Shown here one piece after another: positions 5,852-55,961 of a DNA stretch of 64,000 bases. The DNA comes from a bacterium. Its GTDB lineage: Bacteria; Patescibacteriota; Microgenomatia; UBA1400; UBA12108. Below the pieces are notes generated by a model. It searched no databases and was not told the origin of the DNA. It saw nothing but the letters and a program-made list of their open reading frames with translations. Position numbers and translations under genes: made by a program. Position 1 is the stretch's first letter. The number at the start of each line of letters is the position of its first letter. The DNA is taken from positions 6,283 through 70,282 of the forward strand of contig JAJYKS010000003.1 in assembly GCA_021788365.1 (NCBI GenBank), read 5' to 3'.

Positions 5852-7222
5852 ATGCGAATGGATATTATTTCTACATGGAAAGCAGTACAGGCAGACCTCG
5901 AGCTCTCCATTTCCCCCGTCCACTATTCCACGTGGATCCGCCCACTTTCGCTCACCTCCCTTGAGACAATGTCAGACGGCAGTCATCTTGCCTCCGTTCT
6001 CACCCCCTCCGCATACCATCAACAGATTGTTACTCAACGATACCTTGGACAGCTTGAGCGGAGTTTGGGGCGGGTTTTAGGCGGAAAGACAACGTTGTCT
6101 GTACTTGTTGGTCGGGATGCAACGGAGTCCGTTTCCAGTAAACACCTCAAGCAGCAGGCTGCCCCCTCGCTTTTTTCACCCAATACACTTGCGCCACCCA
6201 CTCCAACAGGCTCTCATAATCTAAACCCTAAATATACCTTTGACACCTATATCGTAGGTGCATCTAACAACTTTGCGCATGCTGCGGCAGTGGGTGTGGC
6301 AAAGACTCCTGGTACGCGCTATAACCCGCTTTTTATCTATGGTGGTGTGGGGCTTGGTAAAACCCACCTTATGCATGCCATCGGCCACGCGATTTTTTCT
6401 GACCACCCCGATTGGGACATTATGTATATTTCGGCCGAAACTTTTGGGAGTGATCTTATCGCTAGCTTACAGAACAAGCGAACGGCACAGTTTAAGAAAA
6501 AATATCGCTCACCAAATGTTCTTCTTGTGGATGACGTGCAGTTTATCGCTGGGAAAGAATATATCCAAGAAGAATTTTTCCACACCTTTAATGAACTCTA
6601 TTTGTCCGGGCGACAAATTGTTATGACTAGCGATCGCCCGCCGCAAGAAATTTCGAGGATTGAAGAGCGTCTATCGTCACGATTCATGGGCGGGCTTACT
6701 GTCGACATCCAGCTTCCTGATTTTGAGACACGAGTGGCCATACTCACCCAGAAATGTCAATCTCTGGGCGTACCGGTCCCCGCGGAGGCCCTTTCCCTCA
6801 TCGCCGAACGGTCGCCAACCAATATCCGAGAGCTTGAGGGAGTTCTCCAGACGATCCTTTCCAAGGCTGCTCCAGGCACCGATCTGACTAGCAATGTCGT
6901 TCGCGAGTACTTTGGCACTGAACACGAGCGGCGGAGCCAACGGGTGCGTCCCAATGCCGTCATCGCCAAGACTGCACAATATTTTGACTTTAAACCATCT
7001 GAGCTCACCGGTAGCAGTAGAAAAGCGCCCTTAGTTGCAGCTCGGCATGTCGCCATGTATCTTCTCTACGTTGATTTTGACTTACCCTATGAACAAATAG
7101 GCGATCTTTTTGGGGGGCGCGACCATACAACCGTTATGCATGCCGTCGAGAAGGTGGCGGGGGAGCTCAAAACCCAAGCTGAGATTGCCAAGATAATTGC
7201 CGATATTAAACATGGGCTGTAA
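5852..7222 (+). CDS. dnaA: Chromosomal replication initiator DnaA
   Basis: 456 aa with the AAA+ Walker A GGVGLGKTHL, sensor motifs, and a C-terminal DNA-binding domain (VAMYLLYVDFDLPYEQIGDLFGGRDHTTVMHA). Confidence 0.95.
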   Translation: MRMDIISTWKAVQADLELSISPVHYSTWIRPLSLTSLETMSDGSHLASVLTPSAYHQQIVTQRYLGQLERSLGRVLGGKTTLSVLVGRDATESVSSKHLKQQAAPSLFSPNTLAPPTPTGSHNLNPKYTFDTYIVGASNNFAHAAAVGVAKTPGTRYNPLFIYGGVGLGKTHLMHAIGHAIFSDHPDWDIMYISAETFGSDLIASLQNKRTAQFKKKYRSPNVLLVDDVQFIAGKEYIQEEFFHTFNELYLSGRQIVMTSDRPPQEISRIEERLSSRFMGGLTVDIQLPDFETRVAILTQKCQSLGVPVPAEALSLIAERSPTNIRELEGVLQTILSKAAPGTDLTSNVVREYFGTEHERRSQRVRPNAVIAKTAQYFDFKPSELTGSSRKAPLVAARHVAMYLLYVDFDLPYEQIGDLFGGRDHTTVMHAVEKVAGELKTQAEIAKIIADIKHGL

Positions 7223-7460
7223 TGTGGATAACTATGGGGAAAAGTCTGTGGATAGGTGAGTGGAAAGTGGTAGGAAAACTAACCCATGTTATGGGTAAAA
7301 GTGGAGAAGTTTGGGGTTATACACCACCCGCTAAGTTATCCCCAGTTTTATCCACCGCGTTTTCCCCCACTCCTACTCGACATGTTTTCCGGAAATCCAC
7401 CGCGCCTACTAGTACTACTACCTTAATTATCTATAATAGGGGGATCATAAAGGAGCCATT
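7223..7460. promoter_or_regulatory. dnaA-dnaN intergenic DnaA-box cluster (candidate oriC)
   Basis: The region holds TGTGGATAA (7224-7232), TGTGGATAG, TTATCCCCA and TTATCCACC. A canonical SD AAAGGAG precedes dnaN. Confidence 0.55.
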
Positions 7461-8558
7461 ATGAATATTGAGATTTTACAGGAACAGCTTGCTAGCGGGC
7501 TCACCTCCGTGCTTCGTGCCGTGTCGTCTCGAGCTCAGCTCCCCGTGCTCTCCCATGTACTTCTTGAAGCTACGGCCGATGGGATTACTTTATCGGCAAC
7601 AGATCTAGAACTGGGTATTCGTATAAAGATCCCCGCTAAAGTTAGCGAGCCCGGAACCATTACCGTGCCCGCCAAGATGCTTTTTGAGTTTCTTTCATCG
7701 CTATCCCCGGGGAAGGTGTCGCTGGCTTTTGCGGGGGAGACGCTTACCGTAGCCTCTGGTTCATATTCGGCAAGTTTCCAGACCCTTCCCGTTGAGGAGT
7801 TCCCCACCCTTCCCGTTTTTACCAAAGAAATTATGGTTGCGACTATTAGGCTCTCGGACTTGACGAGGTCAGCAGATCGAGTAACCTTTGCAAGTGCCAA
7901 GGACACTTTGCGGCCGGCACTTACTGGCGTTCTCCTTGAGTCGGGAAAGGAATTGACTTGTGTTGCAACAGATGGGTTTCGCCTGGCCGTACAAAAAATT
8001 CCGGTTACTTCTGGTAGCGGATTCGCAACATCTCTACTCGTTCCTGCTCGAGCAATCGGAGAAGTGGCCCGGACGGCATTCCCCGAAACCATAGATGTTG
8101 GTTATATTGCCGAGTCGCATCAGCTGCTTTTTTCCTCCCCTGAAACGATGGTAGTGACACAGCTTTTAGATGGCAACTTTCCTGATTATGGGAAAATTCT
8201 TCCCAAGGAGTTTACTTCGGAGCTTTTACTTTCCCGAGCTGAGTTGCTGCAAGCTGTTAAGGCTGCCCATATTTTTGCACGCGACAACTCCAATATGATG
8301 CGGTGGAAGGTGGAAAAAAAAGAACTAACCATCTCTGCGCGCAGTCCCGAGCGAGGGGAGTGTGTGGTTCGGGTGCCAATTACCACTACCGGCGAAGATG
8401 GGGAAATAGTATTTAACACAAAATATATTCTGGATTATTTGGGCGTTGCCGAGGCTGACGAGCTATGGTTCGGGATGAAGGGCTCGCTTGCTCCCGGAAT
8501 GTTCCGCGATGGAAAAAGTGACACCGGGATGTATGTTGTTATGCCAATAAATGCGTAG
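7461..8558 (+). CDS. dnaN: DNA polymerase III beta sliding clamp
   Basis: 365 aa with a three-domain clamp pattern (LLEATADGITLSATDLELGI...). It directly follows dnaA. Confidence 0.9.
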   Translation: MNIEILQEQLASGLTSVLRAVSSRAQLPVLSHVLLEATADGITLSATDLELGIRIKIPAKVSEPGTITVPAKMLFEFLSSLSPGKVSLAFAGETLTVASGSYSASFQTLPVEEFPTLPVFTKEIMVATIRLSDLTRSADRVTFASAKDTLRPALTGVLLESGKELTCVATDGFRLAVQKIPVTSGSGFATSLLVPARAIGEVARTAFPETIDVGYIAESHQLLFSSPETMVVTQLLDGNFPDYGKILPKEFTSELLLSRAELLQAVKAAHIFARDNSNMMRWKVEKKELTISARSPERGECVVRVPITTTGEDGEIVFNTKYILDYLGVAEADELWFGMKGSLAPGMFRDGKSDTGMYVVMPINA

Positions 8559-8604: not shown

Positions 8605-10542
8605 TCAGTTTGTCGGCTGAATCGGAGTGGAAACGGGGTTTGCTTGCGGGCCGGCATTCTGATTCGCTGGCACACTAGCCCGCTGATTTGCTGGTGTGCT
8701 ACCCGGCTGATTGTCCGGAATTTTGGCTGCCATGGCCACGGCTAGTTTTTGCTGCTTTGCCAAAAGTTCTCGAGGGTCGGTGGTGATTAGGCCATGCTCT
8801 TCTGGGGAGGCGACAACTTTTATGGCGACGTGGTTTTGGCCGGCGAAAAAAAGCGCTTCACCAACCTCGGCGGTGAGTAGCAAGTGTCGCTCTCCTTGGG
8901 AGAGATAGAAGACTTTAGCAAGGTTTTCTATCGCGGAAGTCGATTGTTTCATTAAAACCTGGATACTGCTGTTGCTGACGATAGCCTTCCCGTGGTCTGA
9001 TTTAAGAAAATCATCCACATCTTGTGTAATGGTGGTGAGCCCTAGAAAGTATTTGCGGGCTCGCTTGGCAATACTATAGAGAAAGTTGGCGGAGTCTTCG
9101 GATTTCATGAGGTACCAGGCCTCATCAACTACCAGTAAACGCCTCTTCATGTCGCGCTTTACCTTGGTCCAAATATAGTCAAGAATGATAAAGATGGCGG
9201 TTGGGCGCAGCTCGTCTTGAAGATTCTTAATACCAAACACTGTGAGTCTGTTTCCGAAGTTGACGTTTGATTTCTGTGAAAAAATGCCTTGAAAACTTCC
9301 CTTTACGTATTTTTCTAGCCTGTCTGCAAGGCCGCGGGCAACAGACTCTTCCATGCCAACAAGCGCCTTATATAAATCCTCCATGAGCGGTGGTTCTAGG
9401 TTGTGAGTTGCTGGGTCGCGCGTAATTCCCTTCATCTGATAGGTCATAACCAGCGCGCGGTCGAGGAGAGCTTCCTCGGTTGGGTTCATGTCGCCCATCA
9501 TGATTTTTAACAGTGAGTGGAGCGAGATGATTTTCATAGCGAGCTCGTTTTCATCCGGCTCAGCCATTTGTGGCAGCTCAAACGGATTTATACGATTTGG
9601 ACTGCTAAAGCTAAAATCAACATAGGTGCCACCCAGGGTTGTTGCAAGTTTGCGATACTCGTCTTCAGGGTCAATTGCAATAACCTCCGTGTCGAACAAC
9701 ATAGAGCGCAAAACCTCGAGTTTTACCATGTAGCTTTTGCCAGAACCGGATTTGGCAAACACAACCATGTTGGCGTTCTCTAGCGTAAAGCGATCAAAAA
9801 TAACGAGCGAGTCGTTGTGCTCATTGATGCCATACATAATCCCTTCATTTGCGGTCAGCTCACTTGAGGTGAAGGGAAAGGTGGTGGCAAGGCTCGTTGT
9901 GTCCATGTTGCGGTTAATTTTTAATTTGTCGAGGCCGGTGGGGAGCGTCGTCTTGAAGCCATCTTCTATTTGTAGCGTGGCAGTTTTGGCAACAATGAGG
10001 AGCGCGCCCAAAGCACTTTTTACTTGATTGGTCACCCGGTCGAGCATATCCTTTTTGTCGTCCCGGATCGTAACATAGAGTCCGAATTGAAAGAAGCGTT
10101 CGGCGCCCTTGGCGAGTTGTTCTTGTAGGGCGCGAGCATCTTCGAGCTTTACCTGAGTGTCAATGTTGACGATTCGGCCACGCTGGATGTCGCCCGCTAT
10201 TTCAGCCTCCATCTCGGCGATCTTGCGGCGCAAGTCTTCGATAACCCCTTTACCCTCTACTGGGTAAATAAACATAGAGATAGTAAGGCTGTGATTAAAG
10301 TTTATGAGTGGCGAAAGCCAGTTGGCGTTTACAAAGCGTGGGTAGCCGGCGACAAAGAGGGTGCGGTAGTAGGTATCGTTGATTTTAATATCGGAAAAAT
10401 CGACCTCAATGGCTTCTGGGGCGATAATGTCTTTGACGTTGGACGTTCCCTGTGAGAGAACTTGTACCGGCTGAGAGACGGCAGGGCCACTAGTATCGTC
10501 TTTCTTTTTCGGCATGAATGGAAAGGGCAGGTTAAGAGCCAT
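8605..10542 (-). CDS. VirB4/TrbE/CagE-like type IV secretion ATPase
   Basis: 645 aa with Walker A VVFAKSGSGKSYMVKLE, Walker B LLVVDEAW, and the N-terminal DUF87-like region typical of VirB4. The low-complexity C-terminal tail (PANQ repeats) is encoded by the octamer-periodic element. Confidence 0.8.
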   Translation of the reverse strand: MALNLPFPFMPKKKDDTSGPAVSQPVQVLSQGTSNVKDIIAPEAIEVDFSDIKINDTYYRTLFVAGYPRFVNANWLSPLINFNHSLTISMFIYPVEGKGVIEDLRRKIAEMEAEIAGDIQRGRIVNIDTQVKLEDARALQEQLAKGAERFFQFGLYVTIRDDKKDMLDRVTNQVKSALGALLIVAKTATLQIEDGFKTTLPTGLDKLKINRNMDTTSLATTFPFTSSELTANEGIMYGINEHNDSLVIFDRFTLENANMVVFAKSGSGKSYMVKLEVLRSMLFDTEVIAIDPEDEYRKLATTLGGTYVDFSFSSPNRINPFELPQMAEPDENELAMKIISLHSLLKIMMGDMNPTEEALLDRALVMTYQMKGITRDPATHNLEPPLMEDLYKALVGMEESVARGLADRLEKYVKGSFQGIFSQKSNVNFGNRLTVFGIKNLQDELRPTAIFIILDYIWTKVKRDMKRRLLVVDEAWYLMKSEDSANFLYSIAKRARKYFLGLTTITQDVDDFLKSDHGKAIVSNSSIQVLMKQSTSAIENLAKVFYLSQGERHLLLTAEVGEALFFAGQNHVAIKVVASPEEHGLITTDPRELLAKQQKLAVAMAAKIPDNQPGSTPANQRASVPANQNAGPQANPVSTPIQPTN

Positions 10543-10544
10543 AT

Positions 10545-10672
10545 CCTATCAGTATACCAGCTAGTCGGCGAGTCGGCGGGCCGGCATGTCGGCTTGTCAG
10601 CGAGGCCGGAAAACCGATGCACCGATTTAACTGATTGGCTGACTAGCTGATTTGCTGATTTGCCGACTATCT
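10545..10672. repeat. Octamer-periodic (NNGTCGGC)n / (GCTGATTT)n intergenic element, one of at least five copies
   Basis: TAGTCGGC GAGTCGGC GGGCCGGC ATGTCGGC TTGTCAGC ... GCTGATTT GCTGATTT GCCGACTA. It is flanked on the gene side by CAGTATAcc (TATACT -10 on the coding strand) 8 nt before the VirB4 ATG. Confidence 0.5.
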
Positions 10673-11305
10673 GGCCACGTTGGGGGCGACGACGGGCTGC
10701 TCGTAGTCGGCGGCGGTGCCAAATTTTTGCCCCTTTACCGTTGCGTTATAGAAGCTGTGAAAGAGGGACATAAGATTTTGGGTGTTGAGCTGGTTAGCTG
10801 TTAATCCAATGCGCGTTAGTTGCTTAATAATGTGATCGCGCTTTGGCTCGAGGTCGGCCTTCGCTTTGTCGATAAGACTTTGGTCTATTACCACCTTTCC
10901 TGAAAGGGTGATCATCTGATAGGAAATAACCACATAAAATTTTTTATCCAAAACATTCTGTTCGGTGATTGTTGTTTCCACAAACTGGCGGTACTTGTGC
11001 ATGCGGTCTTGCAAAACGGGATCGTGAAGCTTTTTCTCTTGTGTGCTTAGTAACTCGAGGTAGGAGCTAATGTCCTTTTTGTCGGATTTTACGACTATTT
11101 GGATGGGAAAACTAAGCGAATTTAGTAGGCCGGCATACGCGTAGATGGTGGCGTCTTGTTCTTCCTCAGAAAGCAGGCCAAAATTAATGGCGGAAGTAGA
11201 TATTAACATGCTGCAGGTGCCATTTTTTAATATAACGAGGTCATCTTGGATTGTTTCTACGTCGAGATGATCCTGAGTGGTTGCGACAATGACATTGTTG
11301 TCCAT
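10667..11305 (-). CDS. Hypothetical protein of the T4SS-like cluster
   Basis: 212 aa, soluble, no recognised motif. It is preceded by a TATACT leaderless-type promoter and an octamer array. Confidence 0.45.
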   Translation of the reverse strand: MDNNVIVATTQDHLDVETIQDDLVILKNGTCSMLISTSAINFGLLSEEEQDATIYAYAGLLNSLSFPIQIVVKSDKKDISSYLELLSTQEKKLHDPVLQDRMHKYRQFVETTITEQNVLDKKFYVVISYQMITLSGKVVIDQSLIDKAKADLEPKRDHIIKQLTRIGLTANQLNTQNLMSLFHSFYNATVKGQKFGTAADYEQPVVAPNVAR

Positions 11306-11437: not shown

Positions 11438-12475
11438 TTATTGTGCTCGGAGGAGGATGGGGGGGATGATGTCTCCTTTGGTTGTCAGCGATTGTGGGGC
11501 GAACTTGAGACCATCCTTTTCCACTTCAATGGCATAGGAGCCGTTTCCGAGAGGTGTGGTGGTAAAAAACTGTCCAAGGCCGTTGGTTTTCATGGCGCGG
11601 GCGGGGATCCCGTCTCCCATCACTACCTGAACAATGGCGTTTTCTACTAGGTGCCCCCCTTTGTCGACGACTATTCCCGTTATCACATTGGGGATTTGGG
11701 GCGCGGCGGGCAGCTTAATTGTTGTCAGGGGGGTAGACGCAACTTTTGGCGCGGTAGTGGGGCTTGTGGGGCGGGAGAAAACCACATCAACCGTTGGCGG
11801 AGGGCTTTGTGGGGTTTTTGTGGGTGCTGCTGCAACGGTGGGTGTTGGCGTCACGGGGATCGATATCGTACGTAACGGTGGCGCGGGCGGGGTCGCCGCC
11901 GGAGACGGAGCGTTGTTATCGAATACTATACTTTTTGCTTTTAGTTTGCGGATTGTTACTGCGGGCTTGGCGCTACTGGTTTCGACGATGGTAACTGGTG
12001 GAACGGCGGGGGAGATGTGTACTTTCTGAAATAGCGCGTCGACCTCGTGGACCTGCTTTGCTTCTTCTGTCGAGAGGTCGCTTGTTACCGTTTTTCGTAC
12101 GGGAAGCGTTGGTGCTTTGAGTGTTTTTACCGCCGTAGGAGTATCTACAAAAATGTGGGCGGCGAAGGTAAACATTTCAGGAATGGTATTTGTCTTTTTC
12201 CAAACGAAACGGGTGGGGCCATAGATGGCTTTAACAAAATTAAGTGCCCAGATGTCCAGTGGACGATCTTCGAGTGGAAAGAATGCAAAGGCTATTCCAC
12301 CAAAAAGCGAGATGAGTGCGAGCGGCCACTTGAATATAAAAATCAGATTGCTCGCATAGAAAAGGTAGGCGACGAGCATCCCGGCAGCTAGTTCCAAAAA
12401 TTGTTTGAGCGTCATGTCTCCCACAAGGCGGAACTGATATTGTGTAACGTTCTGAGGAATGGGGTGTTGCTGCAT
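11438..12475 (-). CDS. PrgI/VirB3-like membrane protein with a Pro/Thr-rich linker and a C-terminal beta-sandwich (carboxypeptidase-regulatory-like) domain
   Basis: The N-terminus FRLVGDMTLKQFLELAAGMLVAYLFY plus two TM helices resembles PrgI-family VirB3 analogues. A long PT-rich spacer precedes the GIVVDKGGHLVENAIVQV...GSYAIEVEKDGL fold. The likely start is the ATG at 12473-12475 (MQQHPIP; the ORF-track start at 12499 is a TTG), with a TATACT box 6 nt upstream. Confidence 0.5.
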   Translation of the reverse strand: MQQHPIPQNVTQYQFRLVGDMTLKQFLELAAGMLVAYLFYASNLIFIFKWPLALISLFGGIAFAFFPLEDRPLDIWALNFVKAIYGPTRFVWKKTNTIPEMFTFAAHIFVDTPTAVKTLKAPTLPVRKTVTSDLSTEEAKQVHEVDALFQKVHISPAVPPVTIVETSSAKPAVTIRKLKAKSIVFDNNAPSPAATPPAPPLRTISIPVTPTPTVAAAPTKTPQSPPPTVDVVFSRPTSPTTAPKVASTPLTTIKLPAAPQIPNVITGIVVDKGGHLVENAIVQVVMGDGIPARAMKTNGLGQFFTTTPLGNGSYAIEVEKDGLKFAPQSLTTKGDIIPPILLRAQ

Positions 12476-21478: not shown

Positions 21479-24286
21479 TTAGAATCCTGGTAGCTTAATA
21501 ATGCTGCCTGCCACTATTCGTAGTAGTACTCCCGCAAAAATAAGGAAGAGAAGACCCGTAACCGCGGCGGTGAAAAGCTCACGACCCTTCTTTATCTTTT
21601 CCTGATCTCCACCCGCAGTCATAATCTGTACTGTGCCCACGAACATGACAATTAAGGCAATCGCGCCCGCAATGCCACCCGCAAAGGTGAGGAGCACTGT
21701 TGTGAGACTACTCCCTATAGGGATGCATCCAAGTGCGGTGTCAATTGCATTCTCGCCACAGCGACCGTGAGGGTTGATGGTCCCCCTTGGTGAAAGTGTG
21801 GGTGTCGGTGCGGCTGACGCGGCTGCGCTCGCGTTTTGACTGGTTGCGAGATTGTAAACGGCGAGTGCGACGGCAAAGGCACCGGGACGATCATTCCCGT
21901 AGGGGGTCGGCTGGCCGGCCGTGAGATCACCATGATAAAGCAAATACATGTCTGTGTGACGAGCGTCTAGCATGTTGGTGGCGTAGGGGTCGTCGTCGCC
22001 AATAAACTGTCGCGGACAGCCACTGAAGGGTATGGGGAAGGGGTATCCCAGCTGGCAGTTGCTGTTCCCCCCACCGTTGAAGTCTGAGATATCGCCAATA
22101 AGTTCTTGGGTGTTGCTATGCGGATGATTCAGGAGTGTTTTCCCTGCGTTTATGGCAGATGTTTCTAATCCGCCATCTCGACTTGCGGCCCCACCATTTT
22201 GTACAGAAACGGTAGTGGGATCCCCGCCGTCGGTGAATGCGGAGCTTCCCTCTTCGAAGTGGATGCCGGCGATTACTTCGCAAGGGATACCCGTTGCTTG
22301 TTCTGCGGCAGCGTACGCTGACTCGAGTTTGGGATTTAGCTTGCCGTCAACAAACATGGCGGAATTTTTGACGACGTTTGTAGCCTCTAGAAGCGGTGCT
22401 TGCCAGGAAGAATCTTTAATAAGCGCTGCAAATTTGGTTCCGTCACAAAGTCCTGCGGTAGTTGTCGCCTGCTGACACCCTATACGCGTACCAAGCGCGT
22501 AAGCCTCTATTGAGGTTGAGAGCGGGGCGGAGTAGTCAGGATCGCTACAGGTAAATAAGCCCACCGCCCGCTGGGAGTTGGCTATGCTCATAGGCTTCCC
22601 GGCATAGGGAAAAACTCCCTGGTCGTTTACCGTATTAGACATGTTGCTGTTGTGCTCTGCTGCTTGTGTGAGGGTCGGCTCTGTGTCGCGGGTGTTATAG
22701 ACCATTTGTTGGAGGTCGGCTAAACTCTGACCCATCAAGTCAGGAATACTAAGATAGTGGAACGTTACCATGTCTACCATGTCGGTGGGGCGGGGATAGA
22801 TGGCGTTTAGGAAGTCCTGGATTATGTTGGATGTTGTGTACGCTCCACCGCTTTCTTTGGTCACATCGGCTGGTTGTATTTTATAACAGTCACTATCCAT
22901 AGAATCTTGATAGTCATAAATAAATCCTAGTTTGTTGAGCGTAAGTGGATTGTAGTTGTCCGCAACATAATGAAACGTTACGGGCTTGGTCGCGTCTCCA
23001 CATTTTACGACGTTGTCGTGGAGTTCGACGTCTAATTTCGCGGTGATTTTTGATGGTATGCCGGCAGGTAGTGTGCTTAAGAAGTATCTTGCGAGCGGGT
23101 TTTTAACAACAATGTCTTGAAAGATCTTCATTGCTTGGTCGAGTGGAAATGTAGTAAAGAGGTCATCCATGGCGGCAGCCCATGCCTGGTGAACCGTGGG
23201 GTCTGTATAGAGCGCTTTTGACTTTGCAAAATAGGGGAATGGACACTTTAATCCTGGGCAGCACCAAGCCCATAGACAAACTGATTTGCGCGTGTATCCA
23301 CGCTCGTTTGATGGGGGATACATGGGTGCTTGGGATAGGTCGACTGCCCAAGTGGCTGTAGGGTTTTCGTAGTAGGTGTTACAAAGGTCTTTTTCCGCCG
23401 CGGATGTGTCGATATTTTCACCCCCGAGGGTTGTTAGAAATTGCTCGTGGGCGTAGGTAATCCCATATGCGTCGCCACCGACGTTGCCCGGTAGTTCGCG
23501 AGCTATTTCGATCAAGGTCTTGCCATTTGGAGTCTGGAAATTCCAATTCACCCAGCCTAGGGGCCACTCCCCCGTGCCGGCGAGTGTGTCCTTTGTAAAC
23601 GCAGCCTGCTTTACCACAATGGCCTGCCGAACGAGGCGGTCACACATTGTCAGGGATAGGTCCAACATGCCGTTTGTGATTACATTGTCAGAACTTGAGT
23701 TGTAATCGTAGCGATATGCCTCGTTTTGTAGTTTGGGGTAGACGAGTACATTTCCCAATGAATCGGTAGGCGTTGTCGACGATGTGGACGATGAGTCGGG
23801 GCCAGTAGGGTTTGAGAAGTCGGTGCTTTGGACGGCGTCGCTACTCGTGGGTATACCTGTGTATTTACATTTTCCTTCGATGCTTGCAGGATCGACAGGG
23901 ATAAGCTTTCCATTGGCGTCGTACTCCTTGGGGATAACTTTTACACATTGCCCATGACGCCCGCCCATGACGTCTGATCTGGCCGTGTTATCGGTATTGT
24001 TGGTACAAAGATCTACCGGTCCGGTACAGTCTGTCTCGCTCTGGCATGTTTTGGCGCGCTGATCGTGGCATATGTGGAGCGGGGGATAGCGTCGATTGCG
24101 ATCCTGATTTTCGAAGACGATGAGGTTTGTTGGTTTAATAAAACGGTAGAGGGGAAAGAAGCTTTTGTAGAACTCATCGGTTGTCGGTTCTGCCGGATCG
24201 ATTGCAAATATCTTGGTGGCGTGGAGAAGGGACACAATGAGAAGGAGTAGTGTTGTAGCTAGGATGCGAAACCGTATCGAGCGCAT
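21479..24286 (-). CDS. Large secreted Cys-rich protein with a C-terminal VirB2-like pilin domain (candidate pilus tip / adhesin subunit)
   Basis: The likely start is the signal peptide MRSIRFRILATTLLLLIVSLLHA. The C-terminal ~75 aa (GIAGAIALIVMFVGTVQIMTAGGDQEKIKKGRELFTAAVTGLLFLIFAGVLLRIVAG) is paralogous to the small pilins and to the C-terminus of the 33339-33941 protein. The start is coupled to the upstream pilin gene through a TGAtATG junction. Confidence 0.55.
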   Translation of the reverse strand: MRSIRFRILATTLLLLIVSLLHATKIFAIDPAEPTTDEFYKSFFPLYRFIKPTNLIVFENQDRNRRYPPLHICHDQRAKTCQSETDCTGPVDLCTNNTDNTARSDVMGGRHGQCVKVIPKEYDANGKLIPVDPASIEGKCKYTGIPTSSDAVQSTDFSNPTGPDSSSTSSTTPTDSLGNVLVYPKLQNEAYRYDYNSSSDNVITNGMLDLSLTMCDRLVRQAIVVKQAAFTKDTLAGTGEWPLGWVNWNFQTPNGKTLIEIARELPGNVGGDAYGITYAHEQFLTTLGGENIDTSAAEKDLCNTYYENPTATWAVDLSQAPMYPPSNERGYTRKSVCLWAWCCPGLKCPFPYFAKSKALYTDPTVHQAWAAAMDDLFTTFPLDQAMKIFQDIVVKNPLARYFLSTLPAGIPSKITAKLDVELHDNVVKCGDATKPVTFHYVADNYNPLTLNKLGFIYDYQDSMDSDCYKIQPADVTKESGGAYTTSNIIQDFLNAIYPRPTDMVDMVTFHYLSIPDLMGQSLADLQQMVYNTRDTEPTLTQAAEHNSNMSNTVNDQGVFPYAGKPMSIANSQRAVGLFTCSDPDYSAPLSTSIEAYALGTRIGCQQATTTAGLCDGTKFAALIKDSSWQAPLLEATNVVKNSAMFVDGKLNPKLESAYAAAEQATGIPCEVIAGIHFEEGSSAFTDGGDPTTVSVQNGGAASRDGGLETSAINAGKTLLNHPHSNTQELIGDISDFNGGGNSNCQLGYPFPIPFSGCPRQFIGDDDPYATNMLDARHTDMYLLYHGDLTAGQPTPYGNDRPGAFAVALAVYNLATSQNASAAASAAPTPTLSPRGTINPHGRCGENAIDTALGCIPIGSSLTTVLLTFAGGIAGAIALIVMFVGTVQIMTAGGDQEKIKKGRELFTAAVTGLLFLIFAGVLLRIVAGSIIKLPGF

Positions 24287-24287
24287 A

Positions 24288-24572
24288 TCAAAAACCAAAC
24301 TTAAACTGGGTAACCTGTACGCCGGTAATTGTTTGAATGGCGAGTAACACCAGCCATGAAATAATGGCAAGCGCAATCCCAACGACAGCGAGCGTGATAA
24401 TCTGTTTTCCCGCTTCGAGATTTTTTGTATCACTGCCGGCAGTTAGGATTTTAAATCCCCCCGAAAGAATCATTAGAAACGCGATGACTCCGATTAGGGG
24501 AATCGCTGCGGACAAGATGTTGCCAAAGTACGTGGGAAGGTCTGATAGTTGTGCTGCATCACCGACTGCCAT
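24288..24572 (-). CDS. VirB2/TrbC-like T4SS pilin paralogue 1
   Basis: 94 aa with two TM helices flanking the TAGSDTKNLEAGKQIITLAVVGIALAI motif. A TGCTATAAT box lies 6 nt before the ATG (leaderless). Confidence 0.65.
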   Translation of the reverse strand: MAVGDAAQLSDLPTYFGNILSAAIPLIGVIAFLMILSGGFKILTAGSDTKNLEAGKQIITLAVVGIALAIISWLVLLAIQTITGVQVTQFKFGF

Positions 24573-24754
24573 ATGGAGAGATTATAGCAGGAAGAAGTGG
24601 TCAATGATGTTTTGTCTCGCCGTGTTCTCAAATGAAAGACCGACCCACCTGGTCGCGTGCGCCACAATTTTGCAGTGCTCACAGCTTACTGGAACAACCA
24701 GTTCGACGCTCCGCGCTGAAAATTGCTCTGCACGCTCCCCTTTTGGCGAGTTAC

Positions 24755-25105
24755 TTAGTAAGCTTTCGGGGGGTTGATGTTGCCATTCAATACTGAAATC
24801 CCGAAGAAGTATTGAATGATAAGCATTACAGCCCATGCGGAGGCAACGACGGCAAGACCAACCAAGGCGGCCGTTATGCGATCGCGTGCTTCTTGTGTCT
24901 TCCCCTTGTCACCACCAGAGGTGATCCACTGAATGCCACCCCAAATAAGGTAGGCAAAAACGAGCAGGGCGGCTATCAAGAGTGCGCCTTGGACGGCACC
25001 CTGAATGAGCGTGCCGATGTTGGTAATCTGGACGTTGTCAGGCTTGTTGACGGATAGGTCGGGGGCTGCTGGTGCTTGAGCTAGAGCTACTGGGATAAGA
25101 TTCAT
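24755..25105 (-). CDS. VirB2/TrbC-like T4SS pilin paralogue 2
   Basis: 116 aa with the GGIQWITSGGDKGKTQEARDRITAALVGLAVVASAW motif. It has its own TTGACA-N17-TAAACT promoter and a canonical SD AAAGGAGG. Confidence 0.7.
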   Translation of the reverse strand: MNLIPVALAQAPAAPDLSVNKPDNVQITNIGTLIQGAVQGALLIAALLVFAYLIWGGIQWITSGGDKGKTQEARDRITAALVGLAVVASAWAVMLIIQYFFGISVLNGNINPPKAY

Positions 25106-25162
25106 ATATTTCCTCCTTTATGTGTGTAGTTTATTTTTTTATACGCCTGTTGTCAATTTATT

Positions 25163-25468
25163 TTATTTTGTGATTCCGATGCCGAAGAAATAGTCGATGA
25201 GACGGAAGATGGCCCAGGATGCCGCTACGATGGCTAGACCCAAGATGGCGTTGGTAATGCGATTTCTTGCCTCTTCTAGCTTTCCCTTTTCGCCGCCCGA
25301 GGTTACCCATTGAACACCGCCGTAGATCATATAGATAAAGGTGGCGAGTCCTGCAACCATGATGACGGCGGAGATGGATTTTGAGACAAATGTGCCGAGC
25401 GAACTGTTAACGGCGACGCGAGACTGGACTTCACTGCCAATGTTTATGTCAAAGCTGCTTGCTGCCAT
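25163..25468 (-). CDS. VirB2/TrbC-like T4SS pilin paralogue 3
   Basis: 101 aa with GGVQWVTSGGEKGKLEEARNRITNAILGLAIVAASW. An SD AAGGA lies 8 nt upstream. Confidence 0.7.
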   Translation of the reverse strand: MAASSFDINIGSEVQSRVAVNSSLGTFVSKSISAVIMVAGLATFIYMIYGGVQWVTSGGEKGKLEEARNRITNAILGLAIVAASWAIFRLIDYFFGIGITK

Positions 25469-25535
25469 ATATTATTCCTTCATTCCCTCGACTGTCGCTC
25501 GGGATTTCGGGCTATTTTTATATTTATTAATGTCC

Positions 25536-25913
25536 TCAACCCGCTGTTGGCCACTTAACGTTTAATAGGTCGATCCCGAGTGCTGCTTGGAGGAATTTGA
25601 TAATGACATATGAGGCAACGAGAATGGCGAGACCAATCAGGCCCTGTGTGATGTGGTTCTTTGCGTCTTCTAATTTACTCTTTTCGCCGCCAGAGAGGAT
25701 CCAGTTTACCGCCCCCCAGAGGAAGTACATCATGAATGCGAGACCACCGACAATAATGATTGTTTGCCATAGGGTACCAACGGTTACGGCAAATTGTTTC
25801 CCCTGATCTCCGCCACCCCCACCCGGAACGGCGACGTTGGTTATTGTGGCATGAGCGACTGTAGGAGATAGGAGGTAGGAGATGGGAGATAGGAAGGCAA
25901 TGAGTTTTTTCAT
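25536..25913 (-). CDS. VirB2/TrbC-like T4SS pilin paralogue 4
   Basis: 125 aa with a signal peptide and GAVNWILSGGEKSKLEDAKNHITQGLIGLAILVASY. A TAAtATG junction couples it to the upstream gene. Confidence 0.7.
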   Translation of the reverse strand: MKKLIAFLSPISYLLSPTVAHATITNVAVPGGGGGDQGKQFAVTVGTLWQTIIIVGGLAFMMYFLWGAVNWILSGGEKSKLEDAKNHITQGLIGLAILVASYVIIKFLQAALGIDLLNVKWPTAG

Positions 25914-25914
25914 A

Positions 25915-26271
25915 TTATTTAAAGGTCATACTTTGGATAAGTGTGCCTGGATTCAGAATGTCGACACCTAGGGCTTTCCCAACGATCCATACAATGGAGT
26001 AAGAAACGGTAATGATGATCATTCCAATGGCGCCATTGGTCATCATGTTTTTGGCGTTTTCGATCTTATCTTTTTTGCCACCGGCTGTAATCCAGTTGAG
26101 TCCACCCATGAGAAACCAGAGAGTAAAGGCAAGCCCGCCTACGATGGTCAGGATGGCAAGAGAGTTGCTGATGATTTTTTCGAGTGGGTTAGTGTAGGCG
26201 GCGACACCAGAGCCACCACCGGGCTGGTATCCGCCGGGAGTTGTGATTTGGCTAAAGTTTATATTTGCCAT
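25915..26271 (-). CDS. VirB2/TrbC-like T4SS pilin paralogue 5
   Basis: 118 aa with GGLNWITAGGKKDKIENAKNMMTNGAIGMIIITVSY. Confidence 0.7.
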   Translation of the reverse strand: MANINFSQITTPGGYQPGGGSGVAAYTNPLEKIISNSLAILTIVGGLAFTLWFLMGGLNWITAGGKKDKIENAKNMMTNGAIGMIIITVSYSIVWIVGKALGVDILNPGTLIQSMTFK

Positions 26272-26272
26272 G

Positions 26273-26614
26273 TTAGTAGCTCCCCGGACCCGTGATACTG
26301 GGCTGCAGAATGGCGGTTGCGGAACCGAAAAGTAGGAAGCTGACGACGCCGGTTATGGCGGCTGCAGCGACCATGACTATGAGGCCAATCAGCGACATAT
26401 TGATGGATGAAATGGCTTGTTCTATCTTCTTTTGGTCGCCATTGCTGGTTATGTAGGTGAAACCGGCGTACATGAGATTGAAAAAGGCAAAAAGGCCAGC
26501 AGCGGCGAAGATAACCTTAACTACGTTGGAGATGAAAAGGGGAAGGCCAGTGTTGACCGAGCCATAACTCGTGGACGGTAAAGGGTTGTTGATGCCACCA
26601 AATACACTTGCCAT
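26273..26614 (-). CDS. VirB2/TrbC-like T4SS pilin paralogue 6
   Basis: 113 aa with AGFTYITSNGDQKKIEQAISSINMSLIGLIVMVAAA. Confidence 0.65.
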   Translation of the reverse strand: MASVFGGINNPLPSTSYGSVNTGLPLFISNVVKVIFAAAGLFAFFNLMYAGFTYITSNGDQKKIEQAISSINMSLIGLIVMVAAAAITGVVSFLLFGSATAILQPSITGPGSY

Positions 26615-26622
26615 AGGCGCTA

Positions 26623-26979
26623 TTATAAACCACTGTTGAGGATCTGCACTCCTGTAACAACTTGAATAATCTGGATGATCCAGTATGATCCGAAAAGTAC
26701 CAATAAACCAACTAACGCAGATGTGATGATTTTACTTCCTTCTTTGGTTTTTTCTGAGTTCCCAGCGTTTGCGACAATGGTAAAGCCGCCGAACACGATC
26801 ATAAAAAAGATAACAAGGCCAGCAGCAACGTAGACGTTGGGGAGGATGGCGTTTATCAGCTTGCTTGCATTGGGGTAGGTAGAGGTGGCAGTGGAATTGC
26901 CCTGGAACAGAAGCTTGTCGCCGAGATTGAAACCAGTAGCGGCCATAGTGAGGAAATTATAGCAGGTTGAGCTGGCCAA
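26623..26979 (-). CDS. VirB2/TrbC-like T4SS pilin paralogue 7 (first gene of the operon)
   Basis: 118 aa with GGFTIVANAGNSEKTKEGSKIITSALVGLLVLFGSY. A TGCTATAAT box lies 9 nt before the ATG. Confidence 0.65.
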   Translation of the reverse strand: MASSTCYNFLTMAATGFNLGDKLLFQGNSTATSTYPNASKLINAILPNVYVAAGLVIFFMIVFGGFTIVANAGNSEKTKEGSKIITSALVGLLVLFGSYWIIQIIQVVTGVQILNSGL

Positions 26980-27028
26980 TCACGATTTTATTGTTGCTCC
27001 TAAAACTTTTCGCTCAATTTATTGCTCG

Positions 27029-27057
27029 CGGAGATCTGGGCAGCGACGCTCGCCCAG
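27029..27057. promoter_or_regulatory. Near-perfect 28-29 bp palindrome in the divergent promoter region between the pilin array and the ECF sigma gene (candidate operator)
   Basis: gatctgggcagcg a cgctcgcccagatc forms 13 bp arms with a single bulged C, centred between the divergent starts. Confidence 0.45.
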
Positions 27058-27155
27058 ATCCATGTTCGCATTTAGAGTAGAATTCGCTCAAAGTTTCTTA
27101 ACGTATGCACAAAAATCGTTCTCGGCCAGTTTATGGGGGGGGTAGAATAGCGGGT

Positions 27156-27689
27156 ATGGAGATAATTGTTGAGGAAGTGTTGCAAGGTAAGCGGGGGGCG
27201 GCAACGCGCTTTTATCTCCGATATGCGCCCGGAGTTCGCCGTTATCTTTTGGCAAAATTGCCAGATGAACATATAGCGGAAAATTTGTTGCAAGATGTTT
27301 TTTTGTCGGCGTTTGATTCACTTGCCTTGTACCGCGGCGATTCGAGTGTTGCAACATGGCTTCTTTCGATTGCGCGACACGAGGTGGCCGATTACTGGCG
27401 GAAGTATTATGTGCGCAAAGCAGTCGAGAAGACGAGCCCACTCTTTGAGACGATTGTGTCGGAGATGCTTTCACCGGAATTTGCCTCATATAAGAGCAGA
27501 TTACGCATGCGGTTTATGCGGGCATATCACACTGTGGGCGTGCAATATCAGGATGTGTTGTCCTACCGCTATGAGCTCGGGATGAGTGTAAAAGAGATTT
27601 CTATAAAAATGAACCTGTCATTTAAGGCGACGGAGTCGCTCTTGTACCGAGCACGGCAGGCATTCGCGGCGGCGTATGAACAAGGATGA
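27156..27689 (+). CDS. ECF-type sigma-70 family RNA polymerase sigma factor
   Basis: The region 2 motif LLQDVFLSAFDSLALYRGDSSVATWLLSIARHEVADYWRK and region 4 motif QYQDVLSYRYELGMSVKEISIKMNLSFKATESLLYRARQAF are both present. A TAGAAT box lies 7 nt before the ATG (MEIIVEEV). Confidence 0.75.
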   Translation: MEIIVEEVLQGKRGAATRFYLRYAPGVRRYLLAKLPDEHIAENLLQDVFLSAFDSLALYRGDSSVATWLLSIARHEVADYWRKYYVRKAVEKTSPLFETIVSEMLSPEFASYKSRLRMRFMRAYHTVGVQYQDVLSYRYELGMSVKEISIKMNLSFKATESLLYRARQAFAAAYEQG

Positions 27690-32861: not shown

Positions 32862-32885
32862 GCTTATGCTGATCGCACCCCCACT

Positions 32886-32978
32886 CCCAAACGCAAAACT
32901 CGGTCTATCTGCGACTGGTGTCGCAGCGACCTAGAACTCGGGCTACCCGCCACTTGCGCTCCTGTTTTGCAACTTGTG
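32886..32978 (+). ncRNA. Copy 1 of a conserved ~91-93 nt 3'-UTR element (structured RNA / REP-like repeat)
   Basis: Core CCCAAACGCAAAACTCGGTCTATCT-[7 bp hairpin, TGGT loop]-CGACCTAGAACTCGGGCTACCCGCCACT..TTTTGCAACTTGTG. Hairpin arms are ctgcgac/gtcgcag. It starts 24 nt after the uppS stop. Confidence 0.5.
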
Positions 32979-32998
32979 AGCGTGGGCGTGATCAGTTT

Positions 32999-33337
32999 TT
33001 ACGAGACGATGCTGACTTTGAAGATAACCTGGAGAATCTGGGCGATCCAGTAGGCGGCGAAGATAACAATAAAGCCGATCACGGCGTTGGTGATCATGGA
33101 CTTTCCCTTTTCAGCGGCGTCCTTTTCAGCAGCTCCGGTTAGCATGGTAAAACCACCAAAGATAAGCATGCCAAAAAGGATGATACCGGCTAATGTAAGG
33201 AGATAGGGTAAGAAAACGGAAATGATGCTACCAATATTTCCCGAGGCAAGGCTACCTTTAAGACCCAGCGTACTATTGAGGGTTCCGTATTGAGAAGTGC
33301 CGTAATCTATAGCGAAGGCGCGTGGTATTAATTGCAT
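32999..33337 (-). CDS. VirB2/TrbC-like T4SS pilin paralogue 8 (second locus)
   Basis: GGFTMLTGAAEKDAAEKGKSMITNAVIGFIVIFAAYW. The likely start is MQLIPRAF, coupled to the upstream gene through TAAtATG. Confidence 0.65.
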   Translation of the reverse strand: MQLIPRAFAIDYGTSQYGTLNSTLGLKGSLASGNIGSIISVFLPYLLTLAGIILFGMLIFGGFTMLTGAAEKDAAEKGKSMITNAVIGFIVIFAAYWIAQILQVIFKVSIVS

Positions 33338-33338
33338 A

Positions 33339-33941
33339 TTAAAACCCTGGTAATTGAATGATACCACCCGCGACGATTCGAAGGAGTACAACTGCAAAAA
33401 TTATAAAAATAATTCCCATAACTGCGCCACCAAATAGTTCTTTTCCCTTCTTTACCGCCTCTGGGTTTCCGCCTCCCGTCATTATTTGGACTGTCGCCGA
33501 TAACATAACAACCAACGCGATTGCTCCCGCTATGCCTGAAGCGAATGTGAGAAGGTCTGGTGTAAATGTCCCGGGCTTGTACGGAATACATCCTATGGCA
33601 GTGTCAATCTTGCCATCGCCACACGTTCCTTGTGGATCTGTTTGGACGTGAGGTGTTCCAGTAAGCGCACCGGACGGTTGTGTTTGAGCCGTTTGCATGA
33701 GCTGATTGCAGTCTGCGGCGCCTGCGCAACAGTATCGACTTACGCTACCCGTTCCCGAACGAGAGATAGAGCAAAAAAAGGACTGAGAAGAGCTAGGGTC
33801 GCACGAGCTAGCAGCAATATTGGAGCAGGCCGCGTAAGCCTTGGGTGCGACGATCGTGCAGGTAATCGCGAGCGCAACGAAGATGCTTGGGATATATGAT
33901 AGGATGGATCTATGTTTCCGCGCCCGGTAAAGTTGCTGCAT
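33339..33941 (-). CDS. Secreted Cys-rich protein with a C-terminal pilin domain (short paralogue of the 984-aa protein)
   Basis: 200 aa with a signal peptide, a Cys-rich segment, and a C-terminus (GIAGAIALVVMLSATVQIMTGGGNPEAVKKGKELFGGAVMGIIFIIFAVVLLRIVAGGIIQLPGF) nearly identical in pattern to the 21479-24286 C-terminus. Confidence 0.55.
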   Translation of the reverse strand: MQQLYRARKHRSILSYIPSIFVALAITCTIVAPKAYAACSNIAASSCDPSSSQSFFCSISRSGTGSVSRYCCAGAADCNQLMQTAQTQPSGALTGTPHVQTDPQGTCGDGKIDTAIGCIPYKPGTFTPDLLTFASGIAGAIALVVMLSATVQIMTGGGNPEAVKKGKELFGGAVMGIIFIIFAVVLLRIVAGGIIQLPGF

Positions 33942-38504: not shown

Positions 38505-38527
38505 GGACGTGGCGTTCGTCTGGATTT

Positions 38528-38618
38528 CCCAAACGCAAAACTCGGTCTATCTGCGCCTGGTGGCGCAGCGACCTAGAACTCGCGCTACCCGCCACTGCGT
38601 TGTGTTTTGCAACTTGTG
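38528..38618 (+). ncRNA. Copy 2 of the conserved ~91-93 nt 3'-UTR element
   Basis: Same core as copy 1. Hairpin arms are ctgcgcc/ggcgcag (compensatory change). It starts 24 nt after the upstream stop. Confidence 0.5.
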
Positions 38619-38659
38619 AAATCCCGACTGCACGCCCTAATTTTTTCTTGAGGTAGAAT

Positions 38660-39101: not shown

Positions 39102-39127
39102 AATCCCGCAAAAGCGGGATTTTGCTG
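39102..39127. terminator. Bidirectional rho-independent terminator shared by smpB and the convergent candidate tmRNA
   Basis: AAAATCCCGC-AAAA-GCGGGATTTT is a perfect 10-bp-stem hairpin with T-runs on both strands. Confidence 0.7.
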
Positions 39128-39529
39128 TGGAGACGGAGGGCAGTGAGCCCTCGTCCGCGTGCTGCTACTAACATCATCTACATACGTAGTTCATTTTATT
39201 TTTAACCTCATGCTGTCCCGGGAATGAACGAACCAAAATAGCAAGAGGGTTGTCGATTGATTTGGGCCAGAGTGACAAGACCTGGCTTACGGCCTGTGTC
39301 TGTTTCCACCCAACTACCGCGCCACAAGCGACTTGGTAGTGAATGCCGTTAGGCAAATGCCGGTACGAAACCAGCGTTGTCTGCGGGAGTAAAGAGACCT
39401 ACAAAGAAGTCTTTTACTGCAGTCAAAGGATTTTTGACAGTTATTTTTTGGCTCTTTTTTACGACTTCCTTAGCCAAAGTCGGTATGCAGATGTTAATGA
39501 GCGAGTACACGTCAATACAAGACGTCCCC
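39128..39529 (-). ncRNA. ssrA: Candidate tmRNA (SsrA), about 402 nt, CCA not encoded
   Basis: Minus-strand 5' GGGGACG pairs with 3' CGUCUCC, including G3:U70 (the Ala identity element), followed by discriminator A. The 3' tRNA-like domain GGAC-GAGGG-CUCACUG-CCCUC-CGUCUCCA parallels E. coli GGAC-GCGGG-UUCAACU-CCCGC-CAGCUCCA. An internal frame GCA GAC AAC GCT GGT TTC GTA CCG GCA TTT GCC TAA encodes the tag ADNAGFVPAFA* (39349-39384). The upstream promoter is TGGTACCAT. Confidence 0.55.
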
Positions 39530-44694: not shown

Positions 44695-44777
44695 CGGAGG
44701 AGGCGGGACTCGAACCCACGAGTGCTTTCGCACGGAGGTTTAGTAAACCTCTGCCGTAGCCGCTGGGCCACTCCTCC
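44695..44777 (-). tRNA. Class II tRNA (long variable arm); anticodon loop UUACUAA, identity unresolved
   Basis: Acceptor GGAGGAG/CTCCTCC, T-arm GTGGGTTCGAGTCCCGC, 3-bp D-stem, 16-nt variable arm. By hand the anticodon reads ACU, which is atypical. Confidence 0.55.
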
Positions 44778-55772: not shown

Positions 55773-55792
55773 CTTCACAACCATTGCACGCC

Positions 55793-55883
55793 CCCAAACG
55801 CAAAACTCGGTCTATCTCCGCCTGGTGGCGGAGCGACCTAGAACTCGGGCTACCCGCCACTGCGTTGTGTTTTGCAACTTGTG
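55793..55883 (+). ncRNA. Copy 3 of the conserved ~91-93 nt 3'-UTR element
   Basis: Hairpin arms are ctccgcc/ggcggag, a second compensatory variant. It starts 21 nt after the sufB stop. Confidence 0.5.
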
Positions 55884-55961
55884 GGCTTTGCAATGATTGT
55901 TTACTGTTTGATTTTGTTTTTTGTAGCGTAAAAACAGGACAACCCAACCGAGGTCACGTGT

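Follow-up and report, generated by a model that had tools for sequence, protein, structure and literature searches.

Tandem arrays of genes for VirB2-type pilins are a known feature of Patescibacteria, in which 441 arrays of 2-11 pilin genes have been described from 383 assemblies, and they are abundant in Microgenomatia (PMC12102498). Identity within these arrays is about 25% on average and 54% at most, the Patescibacteria type IV secretion systems (T4SSs) are located near dnaA, and array diversity was suggested as a possible aid to host adaptation, by analogy with Bartonella and Anaplasma (PMC12102498). The predicted pilin series in the T4SS cluster of Southlakia epibionticum is essential (Wang et al., 2023, PMC10633639; PMC12857230), and the T4SS with its pilin series is indispensable in the only genetically tractable patescibacterium. 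A 2025 review names the Patescibacteria pilin array as the sole exception among monoderm T4SSs, which otherwise lack VirB2 (PMC12857230), the role of the T4SS was called “completely unknown” in a 2024 perspective (PMC11665869), and both papers treat a pilus as a possibility only (PMC12857230, PMC11665869). Here we describe an array of seven such genes, designated g7 to g1 from its first gene to its last, encoded on the minus strand at 24288-26946 of the window, i.e., the whole analyzed 64,000-nucleotide (nt) stretch of contig JAJYKS010000003.1 (assembly GCA_021788365.1, positions 6,283 to 70,282) from an ultrasmall Microgenomatia bacterium.

The array shares with those published (Quinonero-Coronel et al., 2025, PMC12102498; PMC10633639) the tandem arrangement of PF18895 genes near virB4 and dnaA, a relaxase-less T4SS of the monoderm type (MPF-FATA-related) and a size within the range of 2-11 genes. 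It has at least two tandem pilin genes (seven, contiguous), a virB4 neighborhood and 22-43% identity between its members, all as in the published type. The existence and abundance of such arrays were already published in 2023-2025, and this case is a further, incremental example. In the earlier papers searched, no mention was seen of positional orthology or fixed gene order, the slow evolution of g2 and its dedicated promoter and Shine-Dalgarno (SD) sequence, leaderless-type starts, or a fusion of lytic transglycosylase and pilin encoded after the array.

Like the VirB2/TrbC/TraA pilins of diderms (PF04956), the seven proteins are small, comprise two hydrophobic helices and a short charged loop, and are encoded in a T4SS locus; unlike them, they occur in a monoderm, as seven paralogues instead of one, and for the most part appear to lack a long cleavable signal peptide. 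Multiple tandem VirB2-like genes in a T4SS locus are also known from Bartonella and Anaplasma, whose sets are read as antigenic or host-range variants, whereas here the copy number is fixed and purifying selection is seen. Type IV pili (PilA with FimU-PilVWXE) and the pseudopili of type II secretion systems (GspG with GspH-K) are unrelated in family and assembly machinery and provide a working analogy only: a conserved, strongly signaled subunit (presumed abundant in our case) is combined with divergent, co-transcribed minor paralogues in fixed order, and large non-pilin proteins are attached via a pilin-like module, the corresponding roles here being presumed likewise.

The explanation that we consider fairly probable is that the locus encodes a fixed heteromeric pilin set with g2 as its major subunit, together with a pilin-anchored hydrolase. 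Judged from sequence, the array has the appearance of a major subunit with six minor ones and not of a variable antigen repertoire, and the seven paralogues are most likely non-interchangeable and act together in one heteromeric assembly. What the analysis shows is profile hidden Markov model (HMM) assignment to a pilin family, the T4SS context, orthology and gene order, purifying selection, motif conservation and the hydrolase fold. The Microgenomatia pilins would thereby be a fixed seven-member set in which one highly conserved member carries strong expression signals, with a hairpin-bearing candidate hydrolase encoded directly after the array. The working question shifts from which variant is made when to what heteromeric structure is formed and what it carries, and concrete targets are g2 (antibodies, fibre purification), Glu679 of the fused candidate hydrolase and three predicted transcription start sites.

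The 43 pilins compared form seven clean clades in a tree, each specific to one array position. Identity is 56-85% between orthologues and 31-47% for the best match from another position. Contigs with g2 homologues at 57-88% identity have a common layout, consisting of a divergent sigma factor gene, seven size-matched pilin genes and a large open reading frame (ORF). A scan of GTDB species representatives, with class-specific HMMs applied, added 77 further loci from Woese-, Chisholm-, Beckwith-, Gottesman-, Collier- and Pacebacteria; in this survey all pilin ORFs of a locus are on one strand, and the order g7-g6-g5-g4-g3-g2-g1 is widely retained. The 68 complete arrays contain 2-11 genes each, most often seven (37/68), and the exact pattern 7654321 was seen 29 times, while larger arrays, e.g., 765654321, result from internal duplication. 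On the evidence of tree and survey, the seven genes are ancient one-to-one orthologues in fixed order across dozens of species. The most conserved of them is g2, which is 78-85% identical to its orthologues vs. 56-70% for the other six paralogues, has a mean pairwise identity of 63% vs. 48-53% in 31 canonical arrays, and retains a nearly invariant core.

Six strain-level contigs represent two haplotypes, 97.1% identical over the array, and all carry seven genes. A comparison across strains had been proposed in the preliminary description as a check for copy-number or sequence variation; it speaks against such variation, since the haplotypes differ at 83 nt over the array, and the 46 differences in the seven coding regions cause a single amino-acid change, in g4. 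The identity of g2 was imposed by the exact-match look-up used, and the other six genes, not selected in this way, account for 15 differences and the one amino-acid change. Of the 83 differences, g2 accounts for 31, all of them synonymous, and the g2-g1 spacer for 36 and an additional 3-nt indel (67 in sum), with the remainder of the array diverging by about 0.8%, when 24755-25105 and 24573-24754 of the window are compared with three related contigs (L002, L003 and L005). The divergence of g2 and this spacer resembles a tract imported by recombination from a lineage further away, with the g2 protein left unchanged. As measured by the identities and the one two-haplotype count only, the array is under strong purifying selection. 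Fixed order, one-to-one orthology and constraint together are expected of non-redundant subunits of one structure, not of an antigenic or host-range repertoire.

The array is opened by g7 (26623-26946), which encodes 107 amino acids (aa) from its ATG, or 118 aa if the upstream TTG at 26979 is taken as the start; the public gene calls take the 107-aa form, on a 579,774-bp contig of the metagenome-assembled genome GCA_027372535.1 to which an exact-protein look-up assigns the window. It is followed by g6 (26273-26614, 113 aa, junction TAAtagcgcctATG), g5 (25915-26271, 118 aa, junction TAAcATG), g4 (25536-25913, 125 aa, junction TAAtATG), g3 (25163-25468, 101 aa), the probable major pilin g2 (24755-25105, 116 aa) and g1 (24288-24572, 94 aa), which is coupled to the next gene by an additional junction, TGAtATG. 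The seven consecutive ORFs of 94-125 aa are all on the minus strand, as described earlier from the sequence, and the three coupled junctions quoted at that time are present.

All seven proteins match Pfam family PF18895 (T4SS_pilin). Six of them exceed its curated gathering score of 26.6 bits (g1 29.6, g2 39.4, g3 33.9, g4 26.9, g5 28.4 and g6 39.3 bits); g7, with 24.6-24.9 bits, is about 2 bits below, its orthologues in relatives are matched without being marked weak, and PF18895 is matched by all 43 pilins examined across lineages. A family HMM gives E values of 1e-27 to 1e-55 for the seven (3e-30 for g7), which are partly circular because its alignment, A2, includes the tested proteins. With this HMM, ten ORFs of the window are recognized as having a pilin domain: the seven of the array, the gene following g1 (in its C terminus), a 200-aa ORF and a 112-aa pilin. 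The pilin-domain tails suspected in the post-g1 and 200-aa proteins are both matched by it. Assignment to holin-like or other small membrane proteins was considered and rejected, since no Pfam family competes with PF18895 for the seven. The shared motif proposed for the array, GG-x-W(I/V)TSGG(D/E)KxK, fits g2 to g5 well and g1, g6 and g7 loosely. Paralogues are 22-43% identical, g3 and g2 being the closest pair (43%).

None of the seven window proteins matches PF04956 (TrbC/VirB2) at E values up to 1. Two of the 43 related pilins, both g1 orthologues, match PF04956 as well (best E value 2.8e-6), and one matches CagC weakly. These two cross-matches link PF18895 to PF04956, yet the seven are not members of the latter. 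On present evidence the seven proteins can be regarded as VirB2-type pilins, as first proposed, given the PF18895 matches and the T4SS locus, although membership in the classical TrbC/VirB2 family is not supported.

The signals around the array suggest that its genes are expressed in different ways. An extended -10 box, TGCTATAAT, is located upstream of g7 (26964-26956, minus strand) with a 9-nt spacer to the ATG and could be a leaderless promoter. It is found again before g1 (24589-24581, minus strand), where it had been placed 6 nt from the ATG and is in fact separated from it by 8 nt. The 64 kb contain this sequence at exactly two sites, both of them in the pilin array (0.48 expected), and no SD is present at g7 or g1 in the window. 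All six lineages inspected by eye lack an SD at g7 and have a -10 box (TATAAT, TATACT or TACAAT) whose end is 6-9 nt from the ATG; in three of them (the window, L008 and L011) it has a TGn extension. In the survey, 45% of first-in-array genes and 52% of g1 orthologues have a -10 box 5-11 nt from the start, vs. 3.9% of all ATGs; of the 35 g1 boxes, 24 carry TGn, and the spacer is most often 6 nt. The median upstream gap is 2-5 nt at g6 to g3; g2 always stands apart, its median being 61-67 nt, like that of g1.

The g3-g2 spacer (25106-25162, minus strand) contains TTGACA (25156-25151), 17 nt, TAAACT (25133-25128) and the SD AAAGGAGG (25119-25112), with consensus matches at 10 of 12 promoter positions. 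This textbook promoter with SD, first noted in the window, recurs across species: 32 of 62 lineages have a sigma-70-type promoter (at least 10/12) before their g2 orthologue, in most cases one whose TTGACA is perfect, and among random windows of equal length the rate is 1.1%. Strong SD sequences are present at 58% of g2 orthologues, near-universally in close relatives, and at no more than 3% of g7, g6, g4 and g1 genes. The g2-g1 spacer (24573-24754, minus strand) is 182 nt long and structured (RNAfold -54 kcal/mol); it contains a weak terminator-like hairpin at 24655-24641 and ends in TGCTATAAT. In 15 of 63 lineages a canonical hairpin-plus-T-run terminator is located between g2 and the g1 -10 box, the latter lying immediately 3' of the terminator in several lineages; five others carry there a structured repeat of about 100 nt, directly 3' of g2 and in sense orientation.

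The claim of three expression modes along the array is for the most part borne out, and the arrangement predates this species. The boxes of g7 and g1, the coupled junctions, and the g2 promoter with its SD recur in many species. The separate SD of g3, AAGGA (25480-25476), is present in the 67-nt g4-g3 spacer (25469-25535, minus strand), but both the SD and the gap are specific to this lineage and absent from relatives; the g4-g3 junction is 1-7 nt in five related loci (L007-L011), and the median gap of the g3 class is 5 nt. A TATAAT overlaps the g7 stop, 7 nt before the g6 ATG in the window; it is not conserved in relatives, and a conserved promoter of g6 was therefore rejected. A promoter of g7 dependent on the divergently encoded extracytoplasmic function (ECF)-type sigma factor was also rejected, since the 36-38-nt sigma-g7 spacers of relatives contain two back-to-back -10 boxes and no ECF-type -35/-10 elements.

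Boxes adjacent to the start codon are not confined to the array. Within the window, a -10 box lies 5-10 nt from the start of about 22 of 64 putative genes, compared with 2.5% of all ATGs; among these genes are the sigma factor gene and every other T4SS gene, and seven T4SS genes in succession have a box, in some cases only 9 nt past the preceding stop. About one third of window genes lack an SD and have a -10-like box (TAnnnT) with its end 6-8 nt from the ATG, about 14-fold over ATGs generally, with examples at starts 2484, 10542, 11305, 12475, 13183, 15973, 16021, 20912, 27156, 40296, 50307, 50368, 56455, 59104 and 62130. Such genome-wide boxes would mean either a leaderless promoter at nearly every gene or a function in starting translation. 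For Patescibacteria, no paper dealing with leaderless expression was found. Leaderless-type starts, as predicted from these boxes, are the default gene-start style of this organism, and the peculiarity of the pilin array is the predicted full promoter, leader and SD of g2. Differential control of individual pilin variants, as proposed originally, is therefore overstated, the -10 box next to the ATG being general in the genome, at about one third of genes. The predicted layout is a better fit to fixed stoichiometry, with one abundant and several scarce subunits, than to variant switching.

For the mechanism proposed here, we infer promoter activity, leaderless translation, the major and minor roles and the existence of a pilus-like fibre. 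Transcription of a first unit would start from the extended -10 promoter 9 nt from the g7 ATG and produce an mRNA with little or no leader, and translation would be handed over to g6, g5, g4 and g3 via tight stop/start junctions. In a second unit, the full -35/-10 promoter and the strong SD would drive g2, with a terminator or stable RNA structure after g2 in many lineages. In a third, the second -10 box, 8 nt from the g1 ATG, would restart transcription into g1, the 935-aa gene following it and the remaining T4SS genes. Such a layout would set the stoichiometry, g2 being made in large amounts and the six minor pilins and the pilin-anchored hydrolase in small ones; g2 is the probable major, abundant subunit.

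Several points weigh against a fixed set built around g2. The slower evolution and stronger promoter of g2 bear on its role as the major subunit indirectly. Promoter, terminator and leaderless calls are consensus matches throughout, and the percentages of the 77-locus survey are approximate, the start codons having been picked by a simple rule. The proteins g1, g3, g5, g6 and g7 begin with MA and have no hydrophobic leader, as determined by inspection of sequence and hydropathy, and in this they differ from classical VirB2/TraA propilins. No canonical terminator follows g2 in the window array, only the structured 182-nt spacer, and read-through from g7 to g1 is therefore possible.

The absence of a canonical internal terminator from the window array also favors an alternative that we regard as unlikely, in which the array, and perhaps the whole T4SS cluster, is a single operon transcribed from the g7 promoter, the internal boxes and the TTGACA being inactive or translational and expression differences arising solely from SD strength and coupling. 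On this view, the boxes found 6-8 nt ahead of almost all T4SS genes, including those with 9 nt to the end of the preceding gene, could be a start-context signal; the tight coupling of g2 and g1 in distant clades, with gaps of 2-20 nt, also fits. However, a rho-independent terminator between g2 and the g1 box, as found in the 15 lineages, is sensible only if g1 restarts transcription; perfect TTGACA sequences 16-18 nt from the -10 element before g2 are enriched about 50-fold over random windows; and the TGn extension and the modal spacing of 6 nt fit the geometry of RNA polymerase, placing the transcription start at the A of the ATG.

The AlphaFold2 model of g2 is a helical hairpin with helices at residues 30-62 and 67-101 and the loop SGGD, with a predicted local distance difference test score (pLDDT) above 90 in the hairpin, and hydropathy analysis revealed two long hydrophobic stretches in each of the seven proteins. 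A search of PDB sequences with the pilin alignment profile gave chance-level matches only (heme A synthase, CD20). Short leader-like N termini are present ahead of conserved mature ends in g2 (MNLIPVALAQA, then conserved APAAPD...) and in g4, where a variable leader-like segment is followed by conserved ITNxAVPGG; clear signal peptides were seen in certain distant g1 and g2 orthologues. These proteins could also not be fibre subunits at all: the PF18895 hairpins would then be membrane parts of the T4SS channel or assembly platform, or another small-membrane class, and no extracellular pilus would exist. This is rather improbable in our view, but it is in line with the lack of VirB2 and pili in monoderm conjugative T4SSs, with the apparent absence of signal peptides from most of the seven, and with the fact that no Patescibacteria T4SS pilus has been imaged to date. 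In addition, comparison of the g2 fold and sequence with solved conjugative pilins was non-discriminating, the motif being too small for a fold search.

The gene coupled to g1 encodes a 935-aa protein with a signal peptide (21479-24286, minus strand, ATG at 24286), which is probably secreted. Its N-terminal part of about 600 aa is uncharacterized and is followed by a lysozyme/lytic-transglycosylase-like domain at aa ~609-817, a linker and a pilin hairpin at aa 859-930. Residues 600-935, modeled with a 20-sequence alignment (pLDDT 80.8), have a lysozyme-like fold with a Glu at a helix end; this residue, Glu679, within GIPCEVIAGIHFEEGS, is conserved in at least 90% of homologues. There was no Pfam SLT match, a phmmer search against the PDB returned only designed PPR repeats, deemed spurious, and a genome scan with the protein gave pattern matches, none of which was confirmed as a relative. 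The model points to a VirB1-like muralytic candidate ending in a pilin module. VirB1 is undetectable in most VirB2-bearing genomes (PMC12102498); in this clade a divergent VirB1 may be hidden in the 935-aa fusion. Compared with VirB1/PrgK-type T4SS hydrolases, the candidate has about 600 extra residues of unassigned fold, and where they have an N-terminal anchor it has a pilin hairpin at the C terminus.

In 46 loci a large ORF (606-1588 aa) comes directly after g1, and a Pfam domain is absent from most of them. Among 40 post-g1 proteins searched (from loci L021-L088), GDSL lipase was matched in two, M23 peptidase in one and SLT in one, the others mostly having no match. Together with the great variation in length, this hints at an exchangeable envelope-degrading module.

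It is conceivable, though doubtful, that the heteromeric set forms one ordered fibre, with g2 as the shaft, the other pilins at its base, adaptor and tip, and the 935-aa and 200-aa proteins polymerized into it via their C-terminal hairpins. In that case the T4SS pilus of an epibiont would carry a peptidoglycan-cleaving enzyme to the host cell wall. As a heteromeric, enzyme-armed conjugative-type pilus it would have no precedent, and it would also be the first of a monoderm.

Least probable is a variation repertoire, in which seven alternative pilins are used or exchanged to evade recognition or match host strains, as the antigenic or functional variation invoked in the preliminary description would imply: the low within-array identity, similar to the average of Patescibacteria arrays, the separate promoters, which could in principle permit differential use, and the change of array size from 6 to 11 genes between orders, with duplicated g6-g5 or g2-like units, would be compatible with it, but each paralogue has an orthologue of its own at the same place in dozens of species, copy number is constant among strains and close species, coding substitutions between haplotypes are almost entirely silent, the g2 core is almost invariant, and there are no near-identical cassettes or repeats to drive gene conversion. 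The host-adaptation variation suggested for Patescibacteria arrays (PMC12102498) is likewise not favored for this clade on the sequence comparisons made here.

The pilin array heads a minus-strand T4SS cluster, which ends with genes for a PrgI/VirB3-like protein (11438-12475, Pfam PrgI 3.9e-6) and a VirB4-like ATPase (8605-10542, Pfam P-loop_TraG 6.7e-29, AAA_10 and CagE_TrbE_VirB). A 212-aa protein with a weak TraC-like match (10667-11305, minus strand) is also encoded in this region. The cluster directly adjoins dnaA and dnaN (5852-8558) and yidC. This chromosomal T4SS is of the monoderm type, and its close homologues are labeled Woesebacteria or Microgenomates group. The neighboring large ORFs (180, 533/516, 1114 and 926 aa) matched no Pfam families, and VirB6- and VirB8-like identities were not assigned by Pfam; VirB5 was not recognized in this T4SS locus. 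On the other side, an ECF-type sigma factor (27156-27689, plus strand, 177 aa from its ATG, with Pfam domains Sigma70_r2 and r4_2 and a -10 box 7 nt upstream) divergently adjoins the array, as in every related locus examined.

A second pilin mini-cluster (32999-33941, minus strand) consists of the gene for the 200-aa protein (33339-33941), coupled by TAAtATG to that of the 112-aa pilin (32999-33337). The former has a signal peptide, a Cys-rich region and a C-terminal pilin hairpin, and is missing from the public gene calls for the contig. The 112-aa pilin, matched by the family HMM, groups with the g7 clade in the tree; this eighth small pilin gene was missed in the first inventory of the locus. 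Searches of the window and of locus L009 with Rfam detected only a tmRNA (39125-39529, minus strand, 97 bits) and one tRNA (44695-44777, minus strand), both ordinary.

Copies of the structured repeat of about 100 nt are located on the minus strand of the window at 32877-32981, 38523-38623 and 55783-55887, one of them directly 3' of the 112-aa pilin gene, and elsewhere at L009:6398-6500, L013:2747-2846, L014:6391-6495, L017:6391-6493 and L012:4481-4565. In this repeat an outer stem, GTTGCAAAAC / GTTTTGCGTT, surrounds an inner hairpin that has ACCA as its loop and a stem with compensatory changes from copy to copy; the repeat has a predicted folding energy of -35 to -39 kcal/mol and no Rfam match. 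Possible identities are a 3'-end structure, a substitute for a terminator and a miniature inverted-repeat transposable element. An exact-core scan of metagenome contigs gave one further copy only.

A second repeat type, with the core CATACGTTAAGAAACTTTGAGCGAA, is present at 27083-27107 (minus strand) inside the sigma-g7 spacer (26947-27155); owing to this repeat, the spacer is 209 nt long in the window vs. 36-38 nt in three related loci (L007-L009). Related copies occur in the g2-g1 spacer of L018 (one) and L019 (two). Spacers around the predicted pilin promoters seem to collect small insertions. Many of the related metagenome-assembled genomes (L012-L014, L017-L019 and others) are titled “uncultured Pseudomonadales” or “Gammaproteobacteria,” one “Omnitrophota” and one “Bathyarchaeia”; since they carry a Microgenomatia-type array, these are probably mislabeled or contaminated records.

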